Source: a virus
Virus record (IMG/VR): IMGVR_UViG_3300044716_000427
Coordinates: 7,566-71,565 of that record
DNA: 64,000 bases
Strand: one strand, 5' to 3'
The position numbers and the translations under genes are program-made. This document shows positions 1-41,400 of the stretch, piece after piece (positions within the stretch are counted from its first letter, which is position 1; each line of letters opens with the position of its first letter). The notes under the pieces are model-generated. The model was not told the origin of the DNA, did not search any database, and was given only the letters and a program-made list of their open reading frames with translations.

Positions 1-710
1 GTCACCCCTTGGTCATGCAGCTCCCTCTCGATACTGTTGTTGAGCGAGATGAGTTGGTTCTTGCGCTTGGCGGACACTTCGTCCTTGGGGTCGAGGCCGA
101 AACCCTTCTTGAAGATGCCGTTGAGCATGATACGTGCAACGTCCTCGGTCAGCTTCACATCGGCCATGCGGCTGAAGTTGTCCATCAGCCTTTGGTCACC
201 GTTGATGGTCTGCTGGATGGCCCTGACCGCCTGTCGGATGCGCTCTGCTGCGCTCTCGGTGTGTCGGTACTTGGTCATCGCCCCGTCCTTGTAGGCCATG
301 TGGAACGTGTTGATGCACACGGTGTTGATGTTGGTGGAGCCGAACCCGATGGCCGTGCTGCCGTTGTGGCTGTTGAGGCAGGTGATGAAACGCTTGAGCG
401 GGGAGCGACCGATGATAATGTCAGGCAACGATGCTTGCATATACACCTTGCCACCTGCGTCAAACATCCCGCCCTTGCTCGCCTCAATCCCAATTTCAGA
501 ACAGGCGTCGATGATGGTCTCGGCCATCTCGTAGTTTTGGTATGGGACGTAGCGGGTGCCGACCGTGCCAAGGTGGGCGCTGCTGTCGTTGCGGAAGATG
601 CCGTAGCTGTTGGTCTTCTGACCATCGGGGCCGTACAGGGGCAGCTTGTTGACCGTCCAGTTAAGGCCGGTCTTTTCGAGAAGGTCGAAGGTCTGTTCTT
701 GAGTGCTCAT
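1..710 (-). CDS. DUF932/DUF945-family phage protein (3' end runs off the window)
   Basis: Not in the ORF track; read manually from ATG 710: MSTQEQTFDLLEKTGLNWTVNKLPL...FRND...LGTVGTRYVPYQN...GGKVY...LNSHNGS...NTVCINTF, the characteristic DUF932 motifs. Confidence 0.85.
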   Translation of the reverse strand, partial: MSTQEQTFDLLEKTGLNWTVNKLPLYGPDGQKTNSYGIFRNDSSAHLGTVGTRYVPYQNYEMAETIIDACSEIGIEASKGGMFDAGGKVYMQASLPDIIIGRSPLKRFITCLNSHNGSTAIGFGSTNINTVCINTFHMAYKDGAMTKYRHTESAAERIRQAVRAIQQTINGDQRLMDNFSRMADVKLTEDVARIMLNGIFKKGFGLDPKDEVSAKRKNQLISLNNSIERELHDQGV

Positions 711-771
711 AGTACTACAGGTGTTGGTTTATTTGAGCGTTGAGGATGCGCTCCCCCCGTTGAATGAGTTG

Positions 772-779
772 CAAAGGTA
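772..779 (-). promoter_or_regulatory. Bacteroidetes sigma-A -7 element (TACCTTTG) for the DUF932 gene
   Basis: Matches TAnnTTTG in the intergenic gap upstream of ATG 710. Confidence 0.7.
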
Positions 780-819
780 AATGAAAGAAGTGAATCCCGC
801 AAGCAAAAGTTACGAACAA

Positions 820-984
820 TCAGCGATGCCTCTTGCTCATAATGCGCTTGGCCTTGCGACATGATGTGAACTTCTTCTTCTTCTTGCTGACGCCGTAGGT
901 ATGGCGGCGCTTACCGGGGTCGGACTCGGCGTGGATGTCGGGTGCGCTGATGAGCAGGGCGAGGGCGAGGAACAGGTACTTCAT
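820..984 (-). CDS. Small protein (54 aa) with signal peptide and basic tail
   Basis: MKYLFLALALLISAPDIHAESDPGKRRHTYGVSKKKKKF...; A/C-rich leader; below the ORF-track cutoff. Confidence 0.65.
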   Translation of the reverse strand: MKYLFLALALLISAPDIHAESDPGKRRHTYGVSKKKKKFTSCRKAKRIMSKRHR

Positions 985-1005
985 GGTGTTTGGGTTGTTT
1001 GGTTG

Positions 1006-1107
1006 TTATTGTAGCAGGAGGCTGATGGTTATCTTGCAGATGCCGTATGCCACCATGATGGCGGCGAGGGTGAACCCGATGTTGATCAGGCAGCGTTCGT
1101 GTTTCAT
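1006..1107 (-). CDS. 33-aa single-TM peptide
   Basis: MKHERCLINIGFTLAAIMVAYGICKITISLLLQ; fills the gap in the early operon. Confidence 0.5.
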   Translation of the reverse strand: MKHERCLINIGFTLAAIMVAYGICKITISLLLQ

Positions 1108-1117
1108 GGGCTGGTGG

Positions 1118-1543
1118 TCACTCTTTGCCTTGTGGGGCGAGGTCAGGGTGTAGTTCGTACAGCCGCTGGATTTCGAGGTTGTTCAGCACGTTGTCGCGGA
1201 TGGCGATGCGTGCCTCATTCTCGCTCAGGTCATCGATGGCGATGGACTCGTAGCTGTAGCCATCGTGGTAGTATGACATCTCGCCCAGCTCCATGACGAC
1301 ATCCCACTCGATGGTGTTCCGCTCTTCGTCGCAGCTTATCATCTGCTGCACTGCTGTCCCCCACTCGTTGTAGGTGTGGTTGTCGCTCTCTTTGTAGCAG
1401 TCATCGAGCAGGGCCTTGCTCTCTTGCTCACGGGGGCCGTACGATGCCCTGATGGCGATCTTGGTGCGGCCACGGAACAGGCCGCTGCCTTGTGCTTGGT
1501 AGCCGTTGGTGCTGCCGAAGAGGATGTAGGTGGTGTTCTTCAT
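1118..1543 (-). CDS. Hypothetical early protein
   Basis: 141-aa ORF in tandem array with A/C-rich leader. Confidence 0.75.
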   Translation of the reverse strand: MKNTTYILFGSTNGYQAQGSGLFRGRTKIAIRASYGPREQESKALLDDCYKESDNHTYNEWGTAVQQMISCDEERNTIEWDVVMELGEMSYYHDGYSYESIAIDDLSENEARIAIRDNVLNNLEIQRLYELHPDLAPQGKE

Positions 1544-1553
1544 TGTTGTTGGT

Positions 1554-1838
1554 TTAGTGTTGTTCTAAAATCATGTACTCCGTGGCAAGCGAAGGCTTTC
1601 CGCTGAAGGTGGTCCCGACTTGCACGGGTGTAGCCACATACCTACAGTTGTGCTTGTCGCAGATGATCTTGATTGCTTCTGCCGTCTCGGCAGAGCCGTA
1701 GTTCGTTGTCGTAATCGTTGGATAGCAGGGGGTGCCAGCTACGTTGCGCGTTTGCCGCACGGTCCAATGGTGTACGTTGGGGTTAACGGTTGCGGCGATC
1801 TCCAAGGCTGCTTGCATTGTTTTTGTTGCGTGTTCCAT
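1554..1838 (-). CDS. Hypothetical early protein
   Basis: 94-aa ORF in tandem array. Confidence 0.65.
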   Translation of the reverse strand: MEHATKTMQAALEIAATVNPNVHHWTVRQTRNVAGTPCYPTITTTNYGSAETAEAIKIICDKHNCRYVATPVQVGTTFSGKPSLATEYMILEQH

Positions 1839-1850
1839 GATGTTTGGGGT

Positions 1851-2555
1851 TTAGAGTTGTTCGTAGTCGGTAACGATGGCGCAGAGTTCGTCGTATTGGT
1901 CTTCTGTCAACTTGCGCTTGTCTTTGTTCTGCAATTCGCACAGGATGGTCTGCACACGCTCAAGCAGCTCACCCATCACTTGTGCCTGAATTGCACGCCG
2001 GGTCGATAGCTTGGACATGACTATCTCTTGGCGCACTTTGGCAATGTCATCGATGGATGCATACTTGCCGTGTTCAGCTACGCTCTTGGCAATTATGCTG
2101 ACATCCAATACACCATCGACGATGTCTTGTAGACGCTTGATGGCATCATGTTGCATCTCCAGTTTTGAGTCGATGTCTTCAATGGCCGTGACCATCTCCG
2201 TGTCCACGCCATTTAGCCGGTTTACCCTGTCATGCAGTTCGGTGAAGTACAGGTAGTCCGACAGGTCGAGGTCTGTCAAGGCTGACGATATGGAGTCATC
2301 GACGTAGCTCTGCATATCCAACTCGGTACACAGGGCATCGAGACCGTTGCCATTCTTGACGTAGTCGCTCAACTCATTGTTGAAGTCATCTTGCGTGACG
2401 TAGCCATCCAATGCGCCCTTCTCAAGGTAGTCTTCGGGGTCGAACATGACACGGGCATCGGCCAATTCCTGCTCCACATCTGCAAGGCGCAGGGTCAGTT
2501 TGGCTATCTGAACCTTGTTGTCAGATATGAAGATGCGCTTTATCCAATTCTTCAT
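1851..2555 (-). CDS. Acidic coiled-coil hypothetical protein
   Basis: Likely start MKNWIKRIF at 2555 after an A/C-rich leader; the longer track ORF overlaps the upstream gene. Confidence 0.75.
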   Translation of the reverse strand: MKNWIKRIFISDNKVQIAKLTLRLADVEQELADARVMFDPEDYLEKGALDGYVTQDDFNNELSDYVKNGNGLDALCTELDMQSYVDDSISSALTDLDLSDYLYFTELHDRVNRLNGVDTEMVTAIEDIDSKLEMQHDAIKRLQDIVDGVLDVSIIAKSVAEHGKYASIDDIAKVRQEIVMSKLSTRRAIQAQVMGELLERVQTILCELQNKDKRKLTEDQYDELCAIVTDYEQL

Positions 2556-2571
2556 GGTGTTTGGGTGTTTG

Positions 2572-3054
2572 TTACCAGCTTGAGTGATAGTAGTACACTT
2601 CTTCTCCCTCGTCCAAGATGTCGTGAAGCGCATCGTATGTACGCTCAATCTCATCGAGGTAATATTGGTCGTAGTCTTGGCTGCCGAAGAAGCACCCGCT
2701 TTGGGTAGGCAGAATGTCTTCAATGTCTTGGTCGTTGAGTATCTTCCCGTCCTCAACGATGGCCGTCTCAATCACTTCTTTGCACAGGGCCAACAGGCTT
2801 TGAAGTTGGGATGTGTCCACGCGGTACTCCCCGCAGTCATCGTTCCCATCTTGCACGTTGTCAACGAACCACTTGTGTATGCAGTTGACCTTGCGCCATT
2901 CGATCACCTCTTCGATGACGTATGACACCCTCTTGGGGTCTATCCTCCGATACGGCTTGCCGTTCAGTGTGACACTTATTTGAACGTTGTCATCGCCCTT
3001 GTAGTCCCAGTGCTTGACGTAGGTGCGGCGGGTGAGGTACATATCGAGTCCCAT
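2572..3054 (-). CDS. Conserved phage protein (MGLDMY...WRKxNxIHxWF...LPTxxGxFFG...YYxSSW family)
   Basis: Recognisable motif set of a widespread phage family of unknown function; start ATG 3054. Confidence 0.8.
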   Translation of the reverse strand: MGLDMYLTRRTYVKHWDYKGDDNVQISVTLNGKPYRRIDPKRVSYVIEEVIEWRKVNCIHKWFVDNVQDGNDDCGEYRVDTSQLQSLLALCKEVIETAIVEDGKILNDQDIEDILPTQSGCFFGSQDYDQYYLDEIERTYDALHDILDEGEEVYYYHSSW

Positions 3055-3067
3055 GGTCGTGTTGGTT

Positions 3068-3415
3068 TTAGATGGTTTTGTTACAGTTGGCACAGAATGC
3101 GTAGTCCTCCACTTGTTCATTGGTACAGGCAGCAACAGGTCGCCACCCGTTGTTGCTCTTGGTGCTCACTGCATAGGCGAGGTTGTAGAACTCCGACCGT
3201 GCACACTTGCTGCATAGGCATTCGGAGTCGTCCATCCACAGCACAAGGCTGTACCCACCGAATGCCTTGTCAGAGGCACGGATGACAGCTTTGAGGTCCG
3301 CCACGGTGCGTATCTTGTCTGTCCAATACGCCATGTTGCGGCGCACGGGCTTGTCGAAGTTGTTGCTGCGGTACAGGTGACCGTCAACTTCTGATATCCA
3401 AAGTTCGTTGCTCAT
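3068..3415 (-). CDS. Putative Zn-binding phage protein
   Basis: GGY..DDSECLCSKC and C-terminal CANC cysteine pairs. Confidence 0.75.
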   Translation of the reverse strand: MSNELWISEVDGHLYRSNNFDKPVRRNMAYWTDKIRTVADLKAVIRASDKAFGGYSLVLWMDDSECLCSKCARSEFYNLAYAVSTKSNNGWRPVAACTNEQVEDYAFCANCNKTI

Positions 3416-3435
3416 GGTGTTGTTGGTTTTACTTG

Positions 3436-3789
3436 TCAGTACAGTTCCTTTGCCATGCGCTGGAGTTCGTTGTGCAGTCGGAGGCGTTTCTGCGCTACCT
3501 CTTCTTCTTTTAGGCGGGCCTTCTCAAGGATGACAGCAGCCTCTCGGTGCGCTGCGTTAGTAATGCGCTGAGACTCGTCATTCGCGCTCTTACGCACCAC
3601 CATCGCCCACTCTCTTGGTGAGTGTTCGGGGAAGACATCTGAGCGCAGGTCTCGCTCAATATCATATCTGATTGAGTTGAGCCACGGGCGGAGGTAGGTG
3701 TTCTCCGGAAGAGATGCGATGAACGCTTCAAACGCTGCGAGTTCTTCTTGCTTTGTCATGGGTTGCTGAGGTTTCTGAAGGTTAATCAT
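3436..3789 (-). CDS. Hypothetical protein with C-terminal coiled coil
   Basis: Start at ATG 3789 (or the downstream MTKQ), just after a 19-bp palindrome. Confidence 0.7.
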   Translation of the reverse strand: MINLQKPQQPMTKQEELAAFEAFIASLPENTYLRPWLNSIRYDIERDLRSDVFPEHSPREWAMVVRKSANDESQRITNAAHREAAVILEKARLKEEEVAQKRLRLHNELQRMAKELY

Positions 3790-3826
3790 GGTCTGTTTGC
3801 TTAGTTGATTATCCACTAACGGCTGG

Positions 3827-4027
3827 TTACAGATACAGGGAGCTACGCATGTCATCCTGAGCGTCACAGGCGGCGAGGAACAGTTCTTCTTCGTCCATGT
3901 TGGCGAGGTGTCGTCGGGTAATTACCCCGTCTTCACTTGCGATGGTGCGCAGTTCGCAGTTGTACGTGAAGTACAGGTCGAGCACTTCCTTGGCTTCTTT
4001 CGCGGTGGTGATTTCGCTGTTGATCAT
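3827..4027 (-). CDS. Hypothetical early protein
   Basis: 66-aa ORF between two palindrome copies. Confidence 0.7.
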   Translation of the reverse strand: MINSEITTAKEAKEVLDLYFTYNCELRTIASEDGVITRRHLANMDEEELFLAACDAQDDMRSSLYL

Positions 4028-4048
4028 GGGTCGTTAGTTGATTATCCA

Positions 4049-4288
4049 CTAAGCGTTTTGCTTGGGGTTGTGGTGGGTGAATGTGACCGTGCCTGAATCT
4101 TCATCTATCTCCACGGGCATTTTCCCGCTCAACAGGTCAGTGGCGCACTCTTTGGTGAGGCCGTAGCCATCTATGAACAGGTCGAGCATACGCTTGCGGT
4201 CGCTCTTGAACTTGTATCCTTGCTGTGCCCACCGAAGGATGCCGGGGGTATGCATAAGTGAGGTCGAGGTGAGGCGGATGGTTCTCAT
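4049..4288 (-). CDS. Hypothetical early protein
   Basis: 79-aa ORF whose TAG stop lies inside the palindrome at 4034-4052. Confidence 0.7.
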   Translation of the reverse strand: MRTIRLTSTSLMHTPGILRWAQQGYKFKSDRKRMLDLFIDGYGLTKECATDLLSGKMPVEIDEDSGTVTFTHHNPKQNA

Positions 4289-4326
4289 CTTTAGATGGTT
4301 TTGCTTAGTTGATTATCTACTAACGG

Positions 4327-5034
4327 TCAGTCCACCACGAATCCGGTGGTATCTTTCTTGGCTTTGCCCTTGGCATACAGGGCTACGACAACCCCTTGGG
4401 GGTCAAGGTGGCGGATGTCTGTGTCATCCCCATCCACTACGGGCATTCCCATGAAGGTGGTCGGTATCTTGTTCCGATGACGGAACACTACAGCAATGCG
4501 CATCCCATCGGCCATGGCTCTGTCAACAAAGGGCTTGTATTCAGGGACGCCGCTGTAGCTGAAGGTCAGGTCATAGTTGGATGGTACGGTACGGCCCACA
4601 ATTTTCGTGTAGTCGTAGAACTGTACATATGGGAAGGCAGACATGATGTTCGGGTAGTGCATCCCATCCACATCCACAGGGATGGTTTCCCATCTGATGT
4701 CTGATGTCCCGTTAAGCCTGACAAGTGGGGTAGCCCCTGTCTTCTCAGCCTTGCGGATGGCACGGCGCACATCATCCACTACAGTGGACATGAACGGCTT
4801 GCGTTCGGCATAGAACAGTTCGGTCTTTCGCTTCCGTGCAAGCTGGACGTTGCTGAAAGCACCACGGCCTGCTGTATTCAGACAGCCCTCATGGCACTTG
4901 GCTACGTCTGCCATAGGGCATACGTTCCCAACCCCTGCAAACTTCCAAGGAAGCATGTACAGGATGGCGGTGGTGAATCCTTTCTTCTGACCTTTGACGG
5001 TCTTTGCGTTGGTATCGATGCCGAGCAGTTTCAT
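4327..5034 (-). CDS. Gp88-like (radical-SAM-like Cys motif) phage protein
   Basis: NVCPMADVAKCHEGCLNTAGRG, VRLNGTSDIRWE, FYDYTK, DGDDTDIRHLDP, KGKAKKD motifs. Confidence 0.75.
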   Translation of the reverse strand: MKLLGIDTNAKTVKGQKKGFTTAILYMLPWKFAGVGNVCPMADVAKCHEGCLNTAGRGAFSNVQLARKRKTELFYAERKPFMSTVVDDVRRAIRKAEKTGATPLVRLNGTSDIRWETIPVDVDGMHYPNIMSAFPYVQFYDYTKIVGRTVPSNYDLTFSYSGVPEYKPFVDRAMADGMRIAVVFRHRNKIPTTFMGMPVVDGDDTDIRHLDPQGVVVALYAKGKAKKDTTGFVVD

Positions 5035-5077
5035 CTTTAGATGGGGGTGTTAGTTGATTTTCCACTAAGCGAACTTC

Positions 5078-5332
5078 CTAAAGGAAGGCCACACGGAAGC
5101 CGAACTCTCCACGGACGATGAACGACTCCACTCCATGCCTATCACAGACGTGGACAAGGGATCGCAATTCATCGAGATAGAGATCGTACCTTTCGGAGAT
5201 CTCCACATAGCATGCCCCTACGATAGGGTATTCGTCTCCGCCGTCGCAGAGCATGTATCCCCTATGTCCATGCTTACGGATGAGTGTCTCACCAAACTGT
5301 GCTGCTGCATTGAAAGGCTTGCGTTGTTCCAT
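5078..5332 (-). CDS. Hypothetical early protein
   Basis: Start MEQRKPF at 5332, downstream of TATCTTTG (5366-5373). Confidence 0.6.
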   Translation of the reverse strand: MEQRKPFNAAAQFGETLIRKHGHRGYMLCDGGDEYPIVGACYVEISERYDLYLDELRSLVHVCDRHGVESFIVRGEFGFRVAFL

Positions 5333-5365
5333 GTTAACGGTGGGTGTTTCTGTTTGACGGCGATG

Positions 5366-5373
5366 CAAAGATA
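5366..5373 (-). promoter_or_regulatory. -7 promoter element TATCTTTG
   Basis: TAnnTTTG with AT-rich upstream sequence. Confidence 0.7.
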
Positions 5374-5443
5374 CAACGCCAAAAGTTAACTTCCAAATTT
5401 ATTTTTACAGTACGTAGTACTGGGGGGCTTAGTTGATTATCCA

Positions 5444-5719
5444 CTAACGGCATCCCTGATGGATTGCCGTACCCTTCAGATGGCGGGTCATTGCACCGTC
5501 TGATCGGGATGTGCTGCTCATCCCAATGGACACTACGGATGTGTTCGTCTCCGCCCAGCGTCCACAGACAACGCACGTTCCCCTCCAAATTTGTCTGAAC
5601 GTGGAGCCAAAGGGAGCCTTTGCGGCTACCCTGTCCCATCGTAGCATGTGGCCCCTAAGGGCTGCGGTTTCGTTCGCTTCGTCACGCAAGGTGCGCTTCT
5701 TTATAGTGTACTCGCTCAT
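5444..5719 (-). CDS. Hypothetical protein with CxxC
   Basis: 91-aa ORF; TAG stop inside the palindrome at 5429-5447. Confidence 0.55.
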   Translation of the reverse strand: MSEYTIKKRTLRDEANETAALRGHMLRWDRVAAKAPFGSTFRQIWRGTCVVCGRWAETNTSVVSIGMSSTSRSDGAMTRHLKGTAIHQGCR

Positions 5720-6096
5720 AGTCGTAAGTGTTTGAGTGTCAGGCAGTTACAGATGTTGATGCATGCATCGCTCTAAAGAGCGGGGGTGGTGGTGCTTAGT
5801 TGATAATCTACTAAGCGACCTATCCCTAAAGGGATACTGTACGTAATTGGTGGTTCGTTGGCTCCATGCGCTACGCGCTTGTCCATGGGCCACACCTTCA
5901 GTAAGCAAAGAACAATCGCACCCCTCCCTAATGGATAATCCACTAAGGATACACTACTACGTAGTGAGCAGTTAAGCCCTTCGCTGTTCGCTGAGGCCGC
6001 TACTACGTAGGTATGTGATGGGGCTGTAGGCTACCCTACAAACGGCTAAAGCCCGCCCCCCTAAGGGAGCGGGCCGTGAGCCGAAGGCCGTGAGTA

Positions 6097-6651
6097 TTAC
6101 GCCGTGAGCACGGAACCTTTGGTTCGCATGTCGAGATTCGCAGCTTCTTTGCTACGATACTTCTCAACTTGCAAAGCAACGATCTCGAGTTCCTTCGCAG
6201 AAAGCTTCTTAAGAAGCTGTAGTGCGGTCTGTAGGTTAGACAACGCACTGGCCGCACCGGCTGCGGAAAGTTCACCGGACGTCGTTACTACTTTAGTAGT
6301 AGTGGCGTTAGTTGATTTTCCACTAACCGCCGTACCCCCTTTGGGGGTAGATTTTTTCTTCTTGCCCTTGTCCTTACGCTCACCCCGCTGGCTATAGCCA
6401 GCTTCACGGAGGAGGTGGTTCAACAACCAATCGGCCTGAAGATACCCGCAGTCCCTAAGGGACTTCCCACATGTCTTCACGGCTTTGATGATTTCATCAT
6501 CAGACGCACCGATCCCTTTCAGGGATGCAATCCCTTTGGTGATCACCGTAGTGGCTTTGGCGGTGAATTGAGCCTGTAGCTTGTCGCCGACCGTGCTCAG
6601 CTGGTCGTTCATGCTCTTGGTCACATCTGCTACGCTTGCTTGCTTGTTCAT
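6097..6651 (-). CDS. First early gene; basic Lys-rich protein, candidate DNA-binding
   Basis: Start MNKQASV at 6651 downstream of TATATTTG; a KDKGKKKK patch; carries a palindrome copy in its linker. Confidence 0.65.
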   Translation of the reverse strand: MNKQASVADVTKSMNDQLSTVGDKLQAQFTAKATTVITKGIASLKGIGASDDEIIKAVKTCGKSLRDCGYLQADWLLNHLLREAGYSQRGERKDKGKKKKSTPKGGTAVSGKSTNATTTKVVTTSGELSAAGAASALSNLQTALQLLKKLSAKELEIVALQVEKYRSKEAANLDMRTKGSVLTA

Positions 6652-6689
6652 GGGAGAGGATTTTTGGCCGCCATTCGTTCGACGGTCTG

Positions 6690-6697
6690 CAAATATA
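6690..6697 (-). promoter_or_regulatory. -7 promoter element TATATTTG heading the early operon
   Basis: TAnnTTTG with a very AT-rich upstream tract (6720-6780). Confidence 0.72.
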
Positions 6698-6870
6698 TGG
6701 GGCAAAAAATATTGGATGCAAGTTTTGTCTCATGTTTTTATTATTTTCTTTTTAATGAAGTTAAAAAGAAATTAATAAAAAGGCGCGTGCAGCGAGAGCA
6801 TGACAGGCACACATATGTATGCACGTGTGCGTGTAAGTTCGGCAGCTGGTTGTTGGATTGTCAAGTGAAA

Positions 6871-6959
6871 GTTATGAACACTTATAGTGTTCAAGAGATG
6901 TTATGAACACTGATTTTTTGACGAAAAAGCTGACAGAAACCTTGACGAAAAAGCTGACA
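6871..6959. repeat. Short direct repeats and hairpin in the divergent non-coding region
   Basis: GTTATGAACACT x2 (6871, 6900); TTGACGAAAAAGCTGACA x2 (6918, 6942); TGAACACT-tat-AGTGTTCA hairpin (6875-6893). Confidence 0.8.
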
Positions 6960-7430
6960 AAGTGGGTCGGGGTCGCACTGCATGATGCGCTGGGCGCCTA
7001 AGGGTGCGCTCACATGCGCTTAGGCATGCGCTCGGGTCCCTTTTGTGCAGGCGCGTCTGCGCAGGCGAAACCAAACTTCAGTTGCAACAACCCCGGGGGT
7101 ATATTTCGCATAATAGGTCCCCAACCTACCGATTGTTCCGTTCCACGGATTTTGGGCCACGGGGGGATATATAGGGTAACCCCCGAACGTCCAAAATGAT
7201 TCCCCGGCTTCTCCTAGCCTCATCAGGCTATTCCCACCGTGGCCCTGTCAAACAAACCACCACAAATGCTTGACACCCCATAGGGTCCCCTATTCTTGCC
7301 ACCACAAGCTCGTTCTAAGCGACTTTCTCTGTCTGTGTGGTGGTATGGGTAGTTAAGGGTGGAGATAGTGTCTTAAATCGAAGAAAAATAGGTATGGGGG
7401 TTGAAATGTAGGTATACATATATTTGTACC

Positions 7431-7661
7431 ATGAATAACAGGTTGACACGCAGGAGGGAGTCGCTGTACTCCGCGGAAGAGCTTGCCAAGGAGCTTGGGG
7501 TGAGCAAAGAAGACGTTGAGGGGCTTGAGGCTAGCTTCCTTTCAAGGATTCAGAAAGACTACCTGAAGCTGCTCAATTACGAGATAGGATTCTACCCCCA
7601 CAGGAAGAAGAGGCAGAAGAAGATCGCCAACGGGGAAGTGGTAATTGATGGACGGTGTTGA
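7431..7661 (+). CDS. Small HTH-like DNA-binding protein
   Basis: LYSAEELAKELGVSKEDVEG helix-turn-helix pattern; TATATTTG 4 nt before ATG 7431. Confidence 0.65.
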   Translation: MNNRLTRRRESLYSAEELAKELGVSKEDVEGLEASFLSRIQKDYLKLLNYEIGFYPHRKKRQKKIANGEVVIDGRC

Positions 7662-7699
7662 AAACTTTTGTTCGCGGCTCTTCAAATGTTATTTCATCT

Positions 7700-8100
7700 C
7701 TCTTATAGTATAGTATATATATACTAAGTAAGTATATACTAGGTAGGTATTTATTAAGTAGGTATAATCTTCTAGTGGTGGAAACTTTTTGAGTGGAACC
7801 CTCTACATCCCGCGTGGCTCTAAGAAAGTAGGATGTTGCTTGATTTTGCTTTTGGAATGTGCAAACGGCTGCAAGCCCCGTGGCTCTAGTAAGGTAGGCG
7901 TTTTTGGAAGAGCAAAAAAAGCAAACCAAAAGCAAAACGAAAGCAAAGTCTTTCTTCGTGGCATAAAAGAAGGGTAATCTTGCGGTTTTGCTTTTGAAAT
8001 GTGCAAACGGCTGTAGCCCGCGTGGCTCTAGCAAGGTACGTGTTTTTGGAAAAGCAAAAAAAGCAAAACGAAAGCAAAATAAAGCAAAATAAAGCAAACG
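7700..8100. repeat. Origin-like region: AT-rich tract plus two ~105-bp direct repeats with iterated motifs
   Basis: AT-rich 7700-7775; CC(G)CGTGGCTCTA x3 (7809, 7876, 8017); repeat copies ~7844-7947 and ~7986-8098 with tandem AAAGCAAA and inverted TTTTGCTTTT. Confidence 0.7.
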
Positions 8101-8173
8101 CGTTTTACTAAGGGCATTAACATAAAAAAGGGGTGGTATTACCCACCCCAATTCTATTTGTATGGAGAGTAAC

Positions 8174-8431
8174 TTACCCCTTAACAATCTCCGTTGACTG
8201 GGATAGTTCACTCAGCTTACGGAAGATGGTGGCGAAGTCTGAGTCGTTCTCGCTGGACTGTTCTTTGAGTTCTTGGATGGACTGCTCAACCTTGGCCATA
8301 CGAGCCTCTAGCTGGTCCATGAATCCTACTAGCTTCTCTACGCTTTCTGCAAGTGGCTGGACGTAGTTTTCAATGTATGACTCGGCGGTGGTCACCCGGT
8401 CGTTCATCTCGATGAGCTTGTCTTCTGTCAT
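8174..8431 (-). CDS. Coiled-coil protein
   Basis: Heptad pattern; TATCTTTG at 8447-8454 upstream. Confidence 0.75.
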   Translation of the reverse strand: MTEDKLIEMNDRVTTAESYIENYVQPLAESVEKLVGFMDQLEARMAKVEQSIQELKEQSSENDSDFATIFRKLSELSQSTEIVKG

Positions 8432-8495
8432 TGCGTGTTGTTTTCACAAAGATACAAGGAAATTAGAAGTAAAACTTTTTGAGAATGGTGTGCGA

Positions 8496-8678
8496 ATGAG
8501 CGAATATCGCATAGCTTTACCCACTGAGGGTCAGAGGATTAGTGACGTAGGAGAGCTACGGACGGGTTTTGCTTGTACCTCAGTAAACACCTTTGACTTC
8601 TCTTCCATTGTGGAAGACACGACTATATTTGTATCCTTTGAGGCACAGGGCTCTTGGTGGCTATACTGCAACAACTGA
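8496..8678 (+). CDS. Hypothetical 60-aa protein
   Basis: ATG 8496 ORF ending 3 nt before the next gene. Confidence 0.4.
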   Translation: MSEYRIALPTEGQRISDVGELRTGFACTSVNTFDFSSIVEDTTIFVSFEAQGSWWLYCNN

Positions 8679-8681
8679 CCA

Positions 8682-10316
8682 ATGGACGTATACGTCGAAA
8701 GCGACAAGGTTAGAATAGTCAGCGCGGGTAACATCGTTACCGTGGCTGGCGCTGACATCCGTCGCGTATGGCAGGAGTTCCAGCCGAACGTCAACTTCAA
8801 TGGTGGGCTTTACACGGTGTACGTCACCGACACCAACGCCAACACCTTCCCCATCCCCCTTGACAGCGTCACCAACCAAAGGTTCTGGACCAATAACTTC
8901 CAAGGGGCTGTGGAGGCGGTCAAGGACATCTCTGCCATCGCAGGGGTTCTCCCATTTGGTGGCATAACAGCACTTACCGGTGACGTTACCGCCGGTCCCG
9001 GCACGGGGACTCAGCCCGCCACGCTGGCCAACACGTCCGTTACCCCGGGGAGCTACACGAACACCAACATCACCGTTGACTCCAAGGGCAGGGTAACCGC
9101 AGCGGCCAATGGAACGGGTGGAGGGGTTGTGTCTGTCACCGCCACGGCTCCTATTGCGGCAACAAGCGGTGCAAACCCGGTCATTACCCACTTCAACTCT
9201 GGTGTAAGCCCGGGTGTATACACAAATGCAAACATTACCGTTGATGTCAAGGGTCATGTTACGCTGGCATCCAATGGAACGGCATCGTCTGGTGACGTTG
9301 TTGGCCCAGCATCGGCAACAGACAACGCCATAACTAGGTACAACCTCACCACGGGCAAGCTGATCCAGAACAGTACAGTTCTGCTGGACGACAACGGCAA
9401 GCTGGGTCAGGTTGACGCGATAGATTTCAATACCACCCCGGTCACGGCAATAGCTGCAAAGAGGTTGCAGTGGAGTGACGCAGAGGGTTCCTTGCAGCTT
9501 GGGCTAAAGGGCGGGAACGTCCACTCGCACATTAGCGAGGATCTGTTCTTGTACGGCTACAACAACAGCGGTAGCCCGATGACCAAGGGGCAGGTGGTGA
9601 GGATCAACGGGTCAAGTGGCGTCCGTCCGGTTGTGTCGCTGGCGCAGGCGGACTCAGACCCCAACAGCGCAGAGACGGTGGGCGTGGTGGCCGAGACAAT
9701 TGCTAACAACTCTCAGGGGCTTATTCAGGTGCTTGGCATTATGACCAACCTGAACACCAACTCATTCAATGAGGGAGATGTGCTATACCTGTCCCCGACC
9801 GTGGCAGGTCAGTTGGTGAACACAAAGCCAGTGGCCCCCGACCACTTGGTCCGCGTGGCCTATTGTGTAAAGAAGTCAGGGGGAGCCGGTGAGATCTACA
9901 TCTCTCCCCTCAACGGGTTTGAGCTGAATGAGCTGCATGACGTACTCATCACCACCCCAGCGACCAACACCTGTGGCCTGTACTGGAACACTGGGACCAG
10001 CGTGTGGGAGAACCTGACGCCAGCCAATGCCAGAACAGCCCTTGACGTAAGCAAGAAGATACTACAGGTTGGCTCCCTGACGCTTACCACCGCAGGGTGG
10101 TCGCTTGTCGGCGGACTATACGAGCAGGACTTGGCAGAGGCCAACATCACAGCCACTTCCATTGTGGATGTTATTCCAGACAACGCTGATATAGCTACTG
10201 TCATCGCCGCTGGAATCCTGCCGAGGACGGACAGCGCAGCAGGCAGCGTCAAGGTGTACTCCCAGAACCTGCCAACCGCCAACATTGGCGTGACCATTAA
10301 CATCAGCAACCTATGA
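8682..10316 (+). CDS. Tail fibre-like structural protein
   Basis: Repeated PGxYTNxNITVDxKGxVT units, [14 protein letters not shown] motif, G/T/N-rich composition. Confidence 0.8.
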
Positions 10317-17063: not shown

Positions 17064-19408
17064 TTCCAACAACGACGAACAATCGCGGGTTTTGGACGTG
17101 GATCCCTATTGCCACGCAGATCCCACCGAGCATGACCATTCCCGAAAAGGATAAGGAGAATGAGAGTTATCATGCCCTGTGGACCCGCTACTTCTTGTCT
17201 CGTCAGGTTGGCGCATGGATCGAGTACTACCGTGGCAACTACTCTGCCAACATGGACTACGCCATCGACTCCCGCTGGGGAGAGGAGGAGGACATCCGTA
17301 TGTTCTTAGGAGACGGCCCCTCGCAAACAAGCCGCATCCCGTTCAAGTTCCCCATCGTGTCCCCCATGCTGACCCGCATGGTCGGGGCCGTTGACAACAT
17401 CTCCATCTCTGCAAAGGCCGAATCTGCTACGCAACACTTTGCACAAACAAGAAAAGAGAACGCCCTGCAAAAGGTTCTCCTTATGTCAGACATGGCCAAA
17501 ATCGGGCCAGTCTCCGAGGGAATTATGGCAACGCAGGGAGTTCCTGCTGATACGCAGAAAGCGGTTCAGCTTTTTGATATGTCCTATCAGGACCATATCA
17601 TCCGCAGCGCCAACAGCCTTATGTCAATGATAGCCCAGCGCAGCAATCTTGATGACACCAAGAGGGTTGCTGCTTCCTATATGGCTCTTTCTGGCGTGTC
17701 TTCCGCTCATTGCTTTGTCAATGGCAACAACCTTGAGTGGGAGATGTGCGAACCCCGCGAGGTCGGCTGGGACACGTCGGCAATGCGTCCAGACTTTTCG
17801 GACGGTCAGTTCGTGTACAATTGCCCCCTGATGAACGTGTCCAGCATTGCAGAACGCTGGAACCCAATCAAGGACAAGATCTACGCCCTCGACACTTGGT
17901 CGCGTATCCTTCCCGGTGGCTACAACTTCAACGCCGGTTGGCCGCAGTCCCGCCCCCGTGTCTTTACCATGTACTGGAAAGACATGAAGTACGTTGACCG
18001 GGGCTTTGTTGAAATTGATGGAGAGCCTCAATATGTCACTATCAACGAAGAAGACCCGGATACTGGCGAAATTACTTTTACGGACAAGGACCTTGTAGAG
18101 CCACCAGAAAATAGGTACACACGCGCTTGGGACGCTTCGGAGCTTAGGGCTAAGAAGCAGCGCAGGGCCATTGAGGTTATCCGCTACTGTTCCATGATTC
18201 CTTGGGAGTATTTGCCCGGCGGTTACACCAAGGGTCGTCCATATAGCCCCAACGAAGCCCCTCCAGCAGCTCCCCTAAACAGCAACCTTCCGCAGGTGGG
18301 TGTTGTAGGCGACATGGTGTTGGACTACGGAATGTACCCGTTGCAGGAGGCCGACCCTGATGACGTATATTCTGTCAAGTTCCCGATCAAGTTCTCTGCT
18401 TGGCGCTACTTGGGTGGACATGCTGTCGCCCCCATCACCGCCGCTCGCGACCCGCAGCGTTGGATGAACCAAATCACGTCTGACATCGCTTGGAGGATGC
18501 GTAAGGCCGGTGGCAAGAGCGTCCTATTGGCCAAGGAGGCGCTTGACGGCTCCAACATGGACGAGGATGAGCTGAACCACAAGGTCAAGGAGGGGGACAC
18601 CATCGTTGTCCCCGCTGCCATGCTTGGGGGCTTGCAGAACGCCTCTGGTCAAATCGACGCATCGCCCGGAGCCTCTTTTTACAACATGCTTGGCTTGCTC
18701 CCGCAGATTAAGGGCGTTGCAGAGAGCTCAGTCGGCGTGTATGAGAGCAACTACGGCGCCCCTCAGGGGGGAGGACAGCTTGTAGGAACCCTTCAGCTTC
18801 AGCTTCAGCAGGCGGGCGTTATGCAGCAGCCATTCTACGCTGCCATTGCAGACCTGTACAAGCAGATACACCAGTTCAATGCACAGGCGGGCAAGCAGTT
18901 CTATTCCCAGCGACCTTGGCTACTGAGCCAAATGGTTGGAGAGGACGATATGCCGTATGTGATTTCTTCCGAGGATATGCATTTTGAGCAATTTCGCGTA
19001 AAAATTTCCTTGTCCCCCGACGGCGCACAGCTTCGCGCCATCACCGATCAGCAGCTTATCCCGCAACTTATGCAGATGGGTATGCTTGATCCGACAACCT
19101 CGGCGCAGCTCATGGGTCGCTCTTTGCCGGATGATGTTTACGCTGCGGCCCGTCAGTTCACCAAGCAGGCGGCTGCTGCTGCTCAACAGCAGATGGAAGA
19201 GCAGCAAATGGCAATGGCGGCACAGCAAGTTTCGCAAGAAGAACAAATGCTTGATCAACAAGAAATGGATTTGGCAAAACAAGAATCCAGTCAAGAAGTC
19301 AAGATGGCTCAATTGCAACAAAAGGCAGAGCAACCAGCGCGTCAGGCAGAAAGCGAGTGGATGAAGCCTGATGCTGCCCTTGGCGCAACTGCTTCACCCG
19401 GTCTATAG
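17060..19408 (+). CDS. Portal protein
   Basis: 782 aa, position, ARDPQRWMNQ helix, Q/E-rich C-terminal barrel typical of podoviral portals. Confidence 0.82.
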   Translation: MIPTTTNNRGFWTWIPIATQIPPSMTIPEKDKENESYHALWTRYFLSRQVGAWIEYYRGNYSANMDYAIDSRWGEEEDIRMFLGDGPSQTSRIPFKFPIVSPMLTRMVGAVDNISISAKAESATQHFAQTRKENALQKVLLMSDMAKIGPVSEGIMATQGVPADTQKAVQLFDMSYQDHIIRSANSLMSMIAQRSNLDDTKRVAASYMALSGVSSAHCFVNGNNLEWEMCEPREVGWDTSAMRPDFSDGQFVYNCPLMNVSSIAERWNPIKDKIYALDTWSRILPGGYNFNAGWPQSRPRVFTMYWKDMKYVDRGFVEIDGEPQYVTINEEDPDTGEITFTDKDLVEPPENRYTRAWDASELRAKKQRRAIEVIRYCSMIPWEYLPGGYTKGRPYSPNEAPPAAPLNSNLPQVGVVGDMVLDYGMYPLQEADPDDVYSVKFPIKFSAWRYLGGHAVAPITAARDPQRWMNQITSDIAWRMRKAGGKSVLLAKEALDGSNMDEDELNHKVKEGDTIVVPAAMLGGLQNASGQIDASPGASFYNMLGLLPQIKGVAESSVGVYESNYGAPQGGGQLVGTLQLQLQQAGVMQQPFYAAIADLYKQIHQFNAQAGKQFYSQRPWLLSQMVGEDDMPYVISSEDMHFEQFRVKISLSPDGAQLRAITDQQLIPQLMQMGMLDPTTSAQLMGRSLPDDVYAAARQFTKQAAAAAQQQMEEQQMAMAAQQVSQEEQMLDQQEMDLAKQESSQEVKMAQLQQKAEQPARQAESEWMKPDAALGATASPGL

Positions 19409-37953: not shown

Positions 37954-38460
37954 ATGCCCGTAAAAACACCCAAAACACTCGATAAGCTGGTCGTATCCAA
38001 ACTCCTTGAGCGTCTCAAGGACGAGTACGATGCCATGTACTTTTACACCTCCGTAGCCAACTGGTGCCAAGGGAAGGGGTATGAGGAGGCTGCAAAGTTC
38101 TTCCTCAAGGAGGCGGATAATGAGAAGGGCCACGCCAACAAGATTGAGAAGTACGTCACCGACTGGAACGTGTTCTTTGAGCTCCCAACCATCGACCAGC
38201 CCAACAAGGAGTACCGTGGCTTGATCGACGTGGTGGAGCAAGCCTACGACATTGAGTACGCCCTGTACGAAGCCTACGAGGAGACATCCAAGGAGATGTT
38301 CTCCCTTGACCTGTGTGTGTTCGACTTCCTCACCCCGCTGCGTCTTGGTCAGAATGAGAGCGTGATCGAGTACAGCGACATGCTCAACGAGCTTCAGACC
38401 ATCGCTGCTGACGTAAATAGTTTCGCCCTCTACTACTGGCAAAAAGAGAAGTTTAAGTAA
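37954..38460 (+). CDS. Non-haem ferritin-like protein
   Basis: E24, Y31, E57, H60, E101, Q133 line up with FtnA ferroxidase ligands; four-helix length. Confidence 0.88.
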   Translation: MPVKTPKTLDKLVVSKLLERLKDEYDAMYFYTSVANWCQGKGYEEAAKFFLKEADNEKGHANKIEKYVTDWNVFFELPTIDQPNKEYRGLIDVVEQAYDIEYALYEAYEETSKEMFSLDLCVFDFLTPLRLGQNESVIEYSDMLNELQTIAADVNSFALYYWQKEKFK

Positions 38461-41400
38461 TGGCTTTGAACTGCAAAATCAACGAGCGCATCTTTACCTT
38501 TGAAGGTAAGGACTACAACTACAACGAGTTCCGTGCTTTGATGTACGATGGACTCCTTGAGCGCATCCCTGAACTTACTGCCGAGACCAAGGAGGCTCTC
38601 AAGACTGAGGAGGGGAAGGAGAAGGTCAAGAAGGAGGTTAGTCGCCGGGATGAGCTTAGCGGGCTAAAGAGGGGCGGGAAAAAGCCAAGCATAAATAAAA
38701 TGAAGTCTCCGCGTGAAGAAAAGGCGGAGAATGAGAATAAGATGGCCAAGACCGGCTCCAATAGGATGTCTGCTCACGGGGCCAAAAGATTGCTTGGGCT
38801 GATCAAGCCCAAGCTCAAGGTGGTTGAGTTTGCTGAGAACGAGGTTGATAAGTTCAACGAAACTTTTAAGCGCCTTAGCGGGAATACGGAGATTGTGGCC
38901 AGCAAGGAGTACGATGGCTTTTACGACTCTTCGGGCGATGGCACTGTGTATTTGATTGCAAAGCCCGGCCAACAGCGCGTACTTGCTCACGAGGTGATGC
39001 ACCCTGTGTTCAACGTATTGTTCAAGGGCAACCCTAAGCTGATGGATGACTTCTACGCCCAGATCAAGGCGGATGAGCGGCTCAAGAAGTACATTGAGTT
39101 CGGCGCCCGGTATGAGCCGGGAATGACCGAGAAGATGGAGGCCATCACTGATTTCCTTGGTGCTGTTGCCGACGGAGAGCTTGATGAGATATTCAAGAAA
39201 GACCCTTCGCTCAAGCAGATGGTCATCGACTTCATCAAGAAGTTGCTTGGGTACGTAGGGTTGTCCAAGGATGTTGAGATATCGGGGGACATGGACATGA
39301 TGACCCTTGCGGGTCTTATCAATGACGCAGTAAGGTACAATGCCCGCTTGCGAGTGGAGAACATCTCTGCCGAGCCGGAAAGCGGGGTATACACGCACAT
39401 CTTTGGCCCTACCGGCAAGCTGACCACTCAGGAGCGCGATGGCTTGGCTGCTGCTATGGCAGCGCATCAGAACGGGGCTACGCAGGAGGAGACCAAGAAG
39501 TTGAATGGCTGGTTCATTGGCCCAGACGGCAAATGGAGGAAGTACTCTGAGCCATTCCAAGCAAAGCTTATTGGCAGCCCCTCTGACCCTGACTGGATTA
39601 TTCCATTTGCATTTGACAAAGATGGAAATACCCTTCCCGGAACTGTGTTAGAAGACATTTATGACTTTCCTGAACTATATAAAAAATACCCATCCTTAAA
39701 ATACATCCCAGTAGAACTTAAGAATCTTACTGGTGACAATGAATTAGCCGCTGGACTTTTTACCGGCTTAAACATTGTGTTAAATAAAAAATATATAAAC
39801 AACGCAAACTCTTTATTAGAAACTATTGCTCACGAGGTCCAGCATGCTATCCAGCAAGAAGAAGGATTTGTTCTCGGCGCACAAAAAAAATATGCGTTGT
39901 ATTTGCTTAATAAAGAACAAAGAAAAACTTATGTAAATTATGTAAAAAATATACTTGATGCGGCTGAAAAGGAGTTAAATGATTACGGCAAATTAAACAA
40001 TTTTTTATCTCAAAAAAATAACAAAAAAGAATTAGTAGAAACATTTAACAAAATTGAGTACGCAGCTATTCAGATGGACTCTGGTCTGTGGGAAGAGGCT
40101 ATTGATGAATTGATTGAAAAGGCTTACGGGAAAGATTTTCAAAAAAAAGATATTTCAAAATATAGTGATATTAGGGCTGAAATTGAAAAAACAATAGAAG
40201 AAATACTTGAAAATGGCGCGACTGGTCAGGAGGTGATTGACTTAATGGCAAAGTCGTTTGGAAGAGGAATTATTGGAAATGTACAAGTAGCAAAACAATT
40301 CATAGAATTAGCAGAAAAAGACATTTACTCAAATACTCCAAAGTCAGTTGACTATCTTTTGGAAATTGAAAAAATTGCAAAAGACCATGTTGCGCAGATT
40401 GATTTAGATTATTTAGCTTATTATATGTCTTATGGGGAGGCGGAGGCAAGGCTTGCCGGTAGGAGGGTTGTTTCAGAAAAATCATCACAAAAAGAAGGGG
40501 AGACTATTTCACCGATTGAAAAATCCAAAAATTCTACAACCGAAGCTGGCAAAAAAATATTTGGTCAGCTATCCGTATATGCAGAATCCGATGTAAAAAT
40601 AGCCAATCAGCTTAGCAAATCAAAGGGCAAATCTTTTGTTGCTAGTATGGCGCTAGGAGCCGAGGGTGAGTTGTTCTTTGCAAAGAAGGCTCCGTCGGAG
40701 AAGAAGTTCATCCCGCAAGAGGAGCTTGACAATGCAATTGAGTCGGCCATCACTGAAGATGAGAATTGGTCGGCAATGAGCCAAGAAGAAAAAGCCAAAA
40801 TCGCATATGATGCGGCAAAAGCTTCGCTCAAAGAGGACTCTAACTGGTATCAAAAGCTTGATCTTGATGGGAAAAGAACTGCTTTGAAGGAGCTTCGCTC
40901 TGACATCTATTCATACCTTGGCGCAAAGATGCCGACCAAGGAGGAGGCAAGGGCAGAGAAAGAGGGGCGCAGGAAAGGTGTTGCCGAGGGTCGTGCAGAG
41001 GGAAGGGCCGAAGAGAAGAAGGCAAGCGAGAAGAAGCTGGAGCGAGAGAAGGAACTTCGCAAGGAGCAAAGGATTGAGCTCAAGGAGCAGATCAAGACCA
41101 TGCGCCAGCGCATGAACGAGCTCTTTGACAAGGTATATGAGGCGTCTAAAAAGGGCGCTATTGCTGGAGAAATCCATGGTCGTCGCGAAGAGCGCAAGAG
41201 GGCGGAGGCAGAATTGAGCAAGAAGCTTAATGCCGCCGAAGTAGAGAAGAACAAGCTGGCCCAAAAGCGCCTTATGCAGGGGTACGCCCAAGGCATTGCC
41301 GATGGAACGCTAGGAGGAGAAATAATTGGCACTCGTCGTGGCCGGAAGCAAGCGAGGCAGGAGATGTCCAAGGAAAGGAAGCAGTTCTCTGAACTGGTGA

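Follow-up and report, generated by a model that had tools for sequence, protein, structure and literature searches.

Short repeats at early-gene junctions are known from T4-like phages and mycobacteriophages, and a few other phage sites invite comparison with them. Stoperators, in Cluster A mycobacteriophages, are 13-mers without symmetry to which an immunity repressor binds as a monomer; the promoters of the N4 virion RNA polymerase are hairpins with a 5-7 bp stem and a 3-nt loop, situated upstream of the transcription start; and the RNase III sites between the early genes of T7 are hairpins, much longer than those considered here. The promoter-early stem-loops (PeSLs) of T4-like phages are reported to associate a host sigma-70 promoter with a terminator stem-loop over about 100 bp (PMC2839356; PMC4122927). 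With regard to the Cluster K mycobacteriophages, two other reports (PMC3203893, PMC12699233) describe SAS, an asymmetric 13-mer (GGGATAGGAGCCC) with a Shine-Dalgarno core, and ESAS, imperfect inverted repeats with 17-bp arms and 4-13 bp spacers, the consensus of which differs by subcluster; the departures within these repeats do not support RNA pairing, and the function of SAS and ESAS is given as still unverified. For phi14:2, a crAss-like phage, one study reports finding no motif shared by the regions ahead of its early transcripts (10.1101/2020.03.07.982082). Here, we will focus on an element carried by the IMG/VR virus record IMGVR_UViG_3300044716_000427, namely a 19-bp palindrome, TTAGTKGATWWTCYACTAA, framed by sequence-variable mini-hairpins and repeated in the early region of the phage. 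Positions 7566-71565 of this single 71,565-bp record constitute the window (64,000 nucleotides), the numbering of which is used for all features. The element belongs with the early-gene junction repeats, and a role in early expression is its likeliest reading.

The palindrome occurs in eight copies between 3801 and 6326 (Table 1), and nowhere else in the 71.5-kb genome. Searching the pattern with at most two mismatches returned 16 matches, which are the eight sites read on both strands, against 0 expected from 100 shuffles, and a scan of the whole 71,565 bp at up to four mismatches gave the same eight sites and no extra one. The first-pass annotation of this DNA had listed eight copies, seven of them sharing one asymmetry; both counts hold, the copy at 5928 being of a divergent, inverted type. 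The early-region genes (3.8-6.3 kb) lie on the minus strand, on which the palindrome reads TTAGTGGATAATCAACTAA, or (c)g(c)TTAGTGGATAATCAACTAA(g/c)(c) with its context. Written as a stem, this dyad, which lacks a Shine-Dalgarno core and is confined to 2.5 kb, has 8-nt arms around a 3-nt centre and harbours a conserved mismatch. Five copies sit at gene junctions, two (5796 and 5928) in a non-coding stretch of 375 nt, and one (6308) inside an open reading frame (ORF); the earlier statements on junctions, on TAG stops contained in two copies, and on start codons 6-16 nt beyond four of them were found to be accurate. Copies 4305 and 5050 have the extended junction CCATCTAAAGATGA in common. The surrounding tract (about 1150-7270) is hypervariable, since tblastx against five relatives gives isolated gene matches only, and most of its proteins are without an assigned family.

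The second component of the element is a set of flanking mini-hairpins. When defined as perfect, with a stem of at least 4 bp, a loop of 3-4 nt and a gap of 5-7 nt to the palindrome, they are present on 8 of the 16 palindrome sides, the gap profile peaking at 6 nt. Random positions of the same region carried a mean of 0.74 hairpin sides, none of 5000 draws reaching eight, and 300 shuffles of the flanks gave a mean of 0.30 and a maximum of two. The eight hairpins named in the first-pass annotation all exist, and the comparison with random positions that it had set as a check comes out in their favour. Their C-loop-G closure, claimed at the same time, is found in all eight, against 8 of the 19 other hairpins listed for the region, a hand count made without shuffle control. 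The observation is real, statistically solid and, as detailed below, family-wide. On a larger scale, such hairpins abound throughout 4435-8435, where the two 2-kb segments hold 19 and 13 of them versus an average of about 5.8, and seven perfect mini-hairpins with a stem of at least 5 bp crowd into about 150 nt (6380-6535) of the coding sequence of the 184-aa first early protein. On the minus strand from 3800 to 6350, a terminator scan classed none of the hairpins as terminator-like.

PeSLs resemble this element in being short composite repeats, made of a conserved part and a stem-loop within a hypervariable region, which flank ORFan genes singly; PeSLs coincide with indels or replacements between close relatives, as the present junctions may also do. 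However, the conserved part of the present element is a 19-bp dyad, and host-type promoters are absent from the palindromes and their immediate surroundings, a separate one at 5366-5397 apart; its hairpins are variable in sequence, kept at a fixed gap of 5-7 nt and devoid of T runs, and only a weak back-joint of depth 2 recalls the mini-circles that are a feature of PeSLs. The likeness to SAS and ESAS concerns placement, namely a repeat in one orientation a few nucleotides before the start codons of some non-structural genes, as seen here for four of the eight copies (6-16 nt before an ATG) and for seven of eight in orientation, with the upstream stop codon sometimes lying within the repeat; lineage-specific inverted repeats are a further common trait. 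These elements differ from ours in sequence and dimensions, in the Shine-Dalgarno core that the 19-bp dyad lacks, and in host phylum, and the available portion of their descriptions mentions no flanking mini-hairpins at a fixed distance. Stoperators are likewise numerous, phage-specific and set in one orientation within transcription units and short intergenic spaces, but they are asymmetric and genome-wide (PMC9283540), whereas the present dyad is confined to its 2.5 kb. Moreover, an immunity repressor is known for stoperators, whereas none was recognised here among 54 scanned proteins and the phage shows no lysogeny genes. With PeSLs, SAS/ESAS and stoperators as known analogues, the element has precedents, and it does not come out as the undescribed recombination system for which it had seemed the best candidate.

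In the following, G000 designates the genome under study, G001-G007 the records of relatives, and L numbers other contigs. The closest comparator is L159, a metagenome contig of 2661 bp, syntenic by tblastx with window 4845-7650. Its five palindromes narrow the conserved core to TTAGTnGA-N3-TCnACTAA, and in all 13 copies of G000 and L159 the 3-nt centre is fixed in length and free in sequence. Position 6/14 is G.A in five G000 copies, A.A in two and G-C in one, never being compensated within this genome; in L159 it is G-C, G-C, G.T, G.T and G.A. Four mismatches (two in copy 5928 and two in L159) are pairable by wobble on the sense strand, and two in the L159 copy at 6308 pair only on the antisense strand. 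As RNA, the palindrome alone folds weakly (-3.4 to -4.6 kcal/mol, z-score of -1.0 to +0.3), versus z-scores of -4.45 (6308) and -4.80 (5796) for full composites of palindrome and hairpins. Two of the flanking hairpins differ from L159 by compensatory changes, one from ACCCCC/GGGGGT to ACCACC/GGTGGT within coding sequence, the other from TATCCC/GGGATA to CATCCC/GGGATG on the sense strand. Since the core is maintained in L159, the hairpins change in a compensatory manner, and the weak fold of the palindrome contrasts with that of the composites, the palindrome is conserved as sequence and the flanking hairpins as structure, which bears out for the latter the earlier notion of a conserved structure with free stem sequence.

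The portal search (the phage encodes a portal protein, PHROG 6547, 1.7e-17) yielded 25 loci, of which five long records were taken whole for comparison. A motif scan of the genome and its relatives, as advised by the first-pass annotation, recovered the eight G000 sites, but none in these five records at up to three mismatches. Exact-pattern scans gave 39 loci in viral contigs, 54 in genome contigs and 87 in metagenome contigs, all of them single chance sites except an unrelated tandem duplication (L013) and the true relative L159; a looser core pattern run on the viral contigs showed single sites only among the matches listed. Three of the five relatives each have another palindrome, which is found only in the equivalent variable region: TTAGTGAATAATCACTAA five times in G003, CTTATTTCA-N3-TGAAATAAG five times plus one 20-nt variant in G001, and (T)TAACTA..TAGTTA(A) four times in G002. 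The distance to the next ATG is 0-78 nt in these genomes, and at four sites of G001 and G002 the ATG lies 0-5 nt past the palindrome. The arms of the palindromes are conserved in sequence as well as in pairing, and in G001 the gene-proximal arm is the better conserved. At G001 2541 and 2020, G002 60034 (read by eye) and L340 2546, the palindrome comes immediately after an intrinsic terminator. The spacer may differ in length within one genome (4/5 nt in L341, 2/5 in G002, 3/4 in G001). No repeated palindrome was found in G004 and G005, nor in the examined parts of G006 and G007.

The pattern extends to a cassette gene found in unrelated phages. Homologues (about 52% identity) of the GP88-family gene, which in G000 is bounded by two palindromes, are also palindrome-bounded in the unrelated viral contigs L340 and L341, with CCCTAACGCGTTAGGG eight times in the former and ACCTAAC-N4/5-GTTAGGT five times in the latter. 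The order there is a TTGACA-N17-TACAAT promoter with a 5' hairpin, the palindrome, then an AGGAG ribosome-binding site. In these two contigs (L340 1454-5774 and L341 1535-4738), the whole early cassette of promoter, 5' hairpin, palindrome and ribosome-binding site is repeated with sigma-70/Shine-Dalgarno grammar; the cassette is common to both, and the palindrome spacer is 2 versus 4-5 nt. A search of annotated phages disclosed none resembling the window region or L340. Taken together, the use of different palindromes at like places by related phages most likely points to an expression signal that travels with exchangeable cassettes.

Differences in gene content between strains and relatives support the view that the palindromes delimit one-gene units, as the first-pass annotation had supposed. 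In run X7, a contig that is 95-99% alike has 3422 fused to 3797 and lacks 3423-3796, so that exactly gene 3436..3789 is gone and copy 3801 now precedes gene 3068..3415; only one end of this deletion is beside a palindrome (4 nt from copy 3801), and it shows 3 nt of microhomology. Divergence also sets in at 3421 in run X6. As for gene 3436..3789, its G003 orthologue is found in another context, with homology again starting at the palindrome; this orthologue begins at the second ATG (3759), so that copy 3801 may be followed by a leader of 41 nt. The identity between G000 and L159, about 55% on one side of the upstream hairpin of copy 5050 (about 5090), reaches 97-100% on the other. Copy 6308 deserves a separate comment, as it is read in frame within ORF 6097..6651. 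The peptide GKSTN that it encodes is invariant in 7/7 homologues aligned with the 184-aa protein, including those with as little as 60% identity, and by our own arithmetic the X7 substitutions across 6472-6589 are multiples of 3 apart, at third codon positions; for these reasons the ORF looks real and the copy is no recent insertion. When used as query, the 184-aa protein found no relatives in viral contigs. A weak back-joint from 6370 to 870 was noticed in run X8 (depth 2, 9 letters between), which could stem from a strain with a rearrangement, from a circular by-product or from faulty assembly.

From these observations, we tentatively favour, at less than even confidence, the reading of the palindrome as a lineage-specific cis-regulatory site that would mark the 5' boundary of early-gene cassettes and be bound as a double-stranded DNA dyad by a phage factor. 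A dimeric protein would bind the dyad TTAGTnGA-N3-TCnACTAA, and the bound site would influence transcription that passes a junction or starts there, whether it serves as an operator, a 'stoperator'-like roadblock or an activator site. The variable flanking hairpins would work on the transcript, as end-protecting or insulating stem-loops of individual cassettes, and short-homology recombination at the junctions would shuffle cassettes as a by-product, because every cassette has the same junction of about 25 bp. The make-up of the element and its non-randomness, the lineage-specific palindromes of relatives, the compensatory changes in the flanking hairpins and the gain or loss of genes beside the junctions between strains are shown; protein binding to the palindrome, at the DNA rather than the RNA level, and the direction of the regulatory effect are what we infer. 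Binding to double-stranded DNA is slightly favoured over that to an RNA stem-loop, because the centre is fixed at 3 nt while free in sequence and position 6/14 is unconstrained, neither of which a hairpin needs, each mismatch affects one side without a compensating change on the other, the palindrome folds weakly as RNA, its arms are conserved in sequence as well as in pairing (the gene-proximal one better so in G001), and relatives carry different dyads, the pattern of heteroimmune operator sets. Furthermore, the terminators that immediately precede some palindromes link the site to what follows termination. The cis-regulatory reading is also supported by the restriction of the eight copies to the early region, seven of them in one orientation, by the non-random and compensating flanking hairpins, and by the cassette behaviour seen in the X7 deletion, the L159 identity step and the G003 orthologue.

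Several points weigh against this cis-regulatory DNA dyad. Spacer variation within L341, G002 and G001 disfavours a rigid dimer and would be tolerated by a hairpin; the palindrome of L340 and L341, lying between a sigma-70-type promoter and a Shine-Dalgarno sequence, must be transcribed; four mismatches are wobble-compatible on the sense strand, with two others compatible on the antisense strand only; and copy 6308 lies within coding sequence. As for the cognate factor, no DNA-binding regulator or repressor was recognised among 54 proteins compared with Pfam, 18 of them also with PHROGs. Two early proteins are weak candidates. The family of the 91-aa CxxC protein is present in four of the five palindrome-bearing genomes (G000, L159, G001 and G002), but a hidden Markov model (HMM) search of G000-G005 did not find it in palindrome-bearing G003. 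The model of this protein (predicted local distance difference test, pLDDT, of 68) consists of a helix followed by strands and has no Protein Data Bank (PDB) match at E <=0.001, and that of the 184-aa protein is poor (pLDDT 45). The 91-aa family is in neither G004 nor G005 by the same HMM search, and no ORF from the G006 part joins it by BLAST clustering. Aligned by hhalign with the first early protein of G003, the 184-aa family reaches a probability of only 24%.

The strongest competitor, which we regard as possible although rather unlikely, is an element acting at the RNA level: a transcribed stem-loop, in the 5' untranslated region or between cistrons, would be read by a phage factor or nuclease and control translation, processing or stability, the hairpins protecting the new ends. 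It would account for copies lying 0-16 nt before many start codons in four phages, for the position of the L340/L341 palindrome downstream of a promoter and 5' hairpin and upstream of AGGAG, for loop lengths varying within three genomes, and for mismatches that wobble on the sense strand. The compensatory changes in the flanking hairpins argue for a structure in single-stranded nucleic acid, the composites 6308 and 5796 fold well beyond expectation, and the tRNA-like minihelices of G003 and G006, a classic kind of processing signal, occupy the same junctions. However, the G000 palindrome alone is a marginal hairpin with a z-score near 0, the mismatch that it shows most often, G.A or A.A at position 6/14, has no compensated counterpart in this genome, two L159 mismatches at 6308 fit the antisense strand only, and a terminator placed directly before the palindrome means that little transcript would contain it.

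The minihelices just mentioned are found beside the palindromes in G003 and in place of them in G006, where they precede the start codons of small early genes by 20-30 nt in both genomes. They combine an acceptor-like stem of 7 bp with a second stem of 6 bp that carries a TTCGAnT loop, some with an extra small hairpin, and paralogues differ by compensatory changes. Neither ARAGORN nor Rfam called them in the G003 region, and Rfam at E <=1 gave nothing fitting in window 1-9000 or in that region. They may be processing signals of the RNase P/Z type. A broader and more doubtful proposal is that the early region is composed of one-gene cassettes with interchangeable 'punctuation modules', being a palindrome with guard hairpins, a tRNA-like acceptor/T-arm minihelix, or both as in G003. 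The palindrome module would be read by a phage enzyme, either a hairpin-dependent transcription initiator or a site-specific endoribonuclease, which would convert a polycistronic early region into near-leaderless single-gene messages. If true, these junctions would also be the means by which ORFan cassettes, GP88 among them, pass from one phage to an unrelated one.

It is improbable that the palindrome is instead a hairpin-type or other phage-specific promoter, that is, the start signal of a phage-directed RNA polymerase activity producing leaderless or short-leader early or delayed-early mRNAs; the geometry would then resemble that of the N4 early promoters. The 8-nt arms with their 3-nt centre fit such a form, but the G000 stem contains the conserved mismatch and folds weakly. 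The N4 promoters and the T7 RNase III sites share with the present hairpins a position ahead of or between early genes of lytic podoviruses. The octamer TAnnTTTG corresponds to the -7 box of Bacteroidota promoters. It is not enriched in this genome (35 matches versus 26.9 in shuffles); in 10 of 22 printed contexts it stands 4-7 nt before an ATG, and seven of these ATGs open long ORFs (7431, 13316, 19453, 23664, 44920, 50354 and 53706). This placement leads us to infer a Bacteroidota host and largely leaderless messages. The plus-strand boxes of this kind are, among others, at 7419, 13304, 19440, 23650, 44908, 50339 and 53694, structural genes included. A near-leaderless design is therefore habitual in this phage, and the order of terminator, palindrome and ATG with no host-type promoter between (G001 2541 and 2020, G002 60034, L340 2546), the four sites of G001 and G002 with an ATG 0-5 nt past the palindrome, the conserved orientation, and the lack of a TAnnTTTG box ahead of genes 5034 to 3068 would all suit a phage-specific promoter. 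No such box is in or beside the palindromes apart from the separate promoter at 5366-5397, and a sigma-70 scan gave no minus-strand site in 3000-8500. However, no RNA polymerase family, including the N4 or crAss type, was found in the large proteins by Pfam, PHROGs, PDB sequence searches and Atlas, a very divergent enzyme being possible, and no ORF of at least 150 aa contains a DFDxD-type motif. The giant proteins match the crAss muzzle and, weakly, zincin and LPD23, their Atlas look-alikes bearing 'large polyvalent protein' (LPD) domains. Leader lengths are moreover spread over 0-97 nt, the L340 palindrome follows a strong host promoter, and copy 5429 has a separate host-type promoter downstream.

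Least probable of all is the dedicated recombination or nicking system first suggested, or any other DNA-transaction site (cassette exchange in the manner of integrons or PeSL mini-circles, a small palindromic mobile element, or a signal for priming or DNA entry), for although the single-gene deletion adjoining copy 3801, the L159 identity step at the hairpin of copy 5050, the extended junction of copies 4305 and 5050, the palindrome-bounded GP88 gene in three unrelated lineages and the weak X8 back-joint would fit it, no integrase, recombinase, transposase or relaxase was seen among the 54 Pfam-scanned proteins, just one of the two deletion ends adjoins a palindrome and the microhomology is 3 nt, copy 6308 is not an insertion in view of the peptide kept by 7/7 homologues, and the scans of three collections revealed no spread beyond one true relative. 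A weak HNH match and a PDDEXK nuclease far from the palindrome region are the only matches of DNA-transaction type, and integron attC sites adjoin a tyrosine-recombinase integrase and are conserved in structure and variable in sequence, whereas the present site is conserved in sequence within the genome, where no integrase was found.

Table 1. Coordinates of the palindromes, mini-hairpins and associated features (window positions, except for the minihelices)
Feature	Coordinates	Strand	Remarks
Palindrome copy	3801..3819	-	TTAGTGGATAATCAACTAA on sense strand; 7 nt past stop of gene 3827..4027; 11 nt before ATG 3789
Palindrome copy	4034..4052	-	holds TAG stop of gene 4049..4288; ATG 4027 6 nt on
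Palindrome copy	4305..4323	-	TTAGTAGATAATCAACTAA; 3 nt past GP88 stop; ATG 4288 16 nt on
Palindrome copy	5050..5068	-	TTAGTGGAAAATCAACTAA; GP88 ATG 15 nt on; hairpins on both sides
Palindrome copy	5429..5447	-	holds TAG stop of gene 5444..5719; hairpin, then Bacteroidota-type promoter downstream
Palindrome copy	5796..5814	-	TTAGTAGATTATCAACTAA; non-coding DNA; ATG 5719 76 nt on
Palindrome copy	5928..5946	-	TTAGTGGATTATCCATTAG; divergent, inverted; within non-coding stretch otherwise 97-100% conserved
Palindrome copy	6308..6326	-	in frame within ORF 6097..6651; encodes VSGKSTN
Mini-hairpin CATC-TTTA-GATG	4286..4297		7 nt from copy 4305; start codon 4288 within
Mini-hairpin CATC-TTTA-GATG	5032..5043		6 nt from copy 5050; start codon 5034 within
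Mini-hairpin CTTCC-TAAA-GGAAG	5074..5087		5 nt from copy 5050; stop of gene 5078..5332 within; L159 identity step here
Mini-hairpin CAGTAC-GTA-GTACTG	5408..5422		6 nt from copy 5429
Mini-hairpin TATCCC-TAAA-GGGATA	5821..5836		6 nt from copy 5796; outer pair changed on both sides in L159
Mini-hairpin CACTAC-TAC-GTAGTG	5952..5966		5 nt from copy 5928
Mini-hairpin TACTAC-TTTA-GTAGTA	6286..6301		6 nt from copy 6308, inside ORF
Mini-hairpin TACCCCC-TTT-GGGGGTA	6333..6349		6 nt from copy 6308, inside ORF; compensatory C-G to A-T in L159
GP88-family gene	4327..5034	-	PF17338, 1.7e-41; bounded by copies 5050 and 4305
91-aa CxxC protein gene	5444..5719	-	weak candidate for cognate factor
184-aa first early protein gene	6097..6651	-	behind host-type -7 box 6690-6697; basic linker; second weak candidate factor
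Bacteroidota-type promoter TTTG-N20-TATCTTTG	5366..5397	-	ahead of gene 5078..5332; 100% conserved in L159
G+C-rich hairpin then TTTAGCCGTTTG	6050..6075	-	after gene 6097..6651; read by eye as its terminator; not in the terminator scan
Minihelices in L127 (G003)	17250-17317, 17816-17860, 18218-18263		
Minihelices in L230 (G006)	~3030-3100, 3385-3430, 3697-3742, 4849-4894		

Some neighbouring features are worth recording. Identity with L159 is 100% over 5354-5413, which covers the Bacteroidota-type promoter. The non-coding DNA at 5830-6075 is 97-100% identical to L159, versus 70-85% in the adjacent genes, its sole variable part being a patch around copy 5928 (68-72%); it may represent a small structured RNA, and it has no Rfam hit. 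Further along, window 7165-7281 is an indel hot spot, as L159 lacks about 7160-7275 and a contig of run X7 swaps 7166-7280 for 23 other letters. It falls within a large non-coding control region (6700-8170) comprising GCTTT-rich runs at about 8050-8100 and 7905-7945, an approximately 45-nt repeat (TAGAGCCACG..CAAAAGCAAAA) present three times, an A+T-rich block at 7700-7745 and a duplicated GTCAGCTTTTTCGTCAA. This region looks like a replication origin, and G003 carries similar TAAAAGCAAAA repeats.

With regard to the remainder of the genome, a Pfam match (PF25731, 7.5e-14) links a 1603-aa protein to the Crassvirus muzzle protein, and two more giant proteins have nearest Atlas clusters bearing LPD domains. 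The virion-module protein of 2132 aa (38460-44858) has two HExxH motifs (residues 177 and 458) and weak matches to zincin (metallopeptidase) and LPD23; together with the 1574-aa LPD-like and the 1603-aa muzzle-like proteins, it makes up a block in the style of crAss phages, from which their RNA-polymerase motif is missing. A DnaB-type helicase, a DUF932 protein, a primase-like DUF6371 protein and a methylase-like protein are also encoded. The phage occurs in 24 listed sequencing runs, all of DNA and none on record as RNA, 12 of which are labelled lake-water metagenomes and the other 12 aquatic, freshwater, soil, wetland, sediment or plain 'metagenome'.

Among the junction repeats known at early ORFan genes, function has been proven in only some cases. 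The present element offers a clean example, in an uncultured freshwater phage with a crAss-type muzzle protein and Bacteroidota-style promoters, of an unusually regular three-part anatomy, together with a natural 'allelic series' in sister phages and in unrelated phages with the same cassette gene. It represents a good system in which to address how early cassettes get expressed and why their junctions coincide with gene exchange. If found, the reader of the palindrome would constitute a new pair of site and factor specificity for Bacteroidota phage biology.

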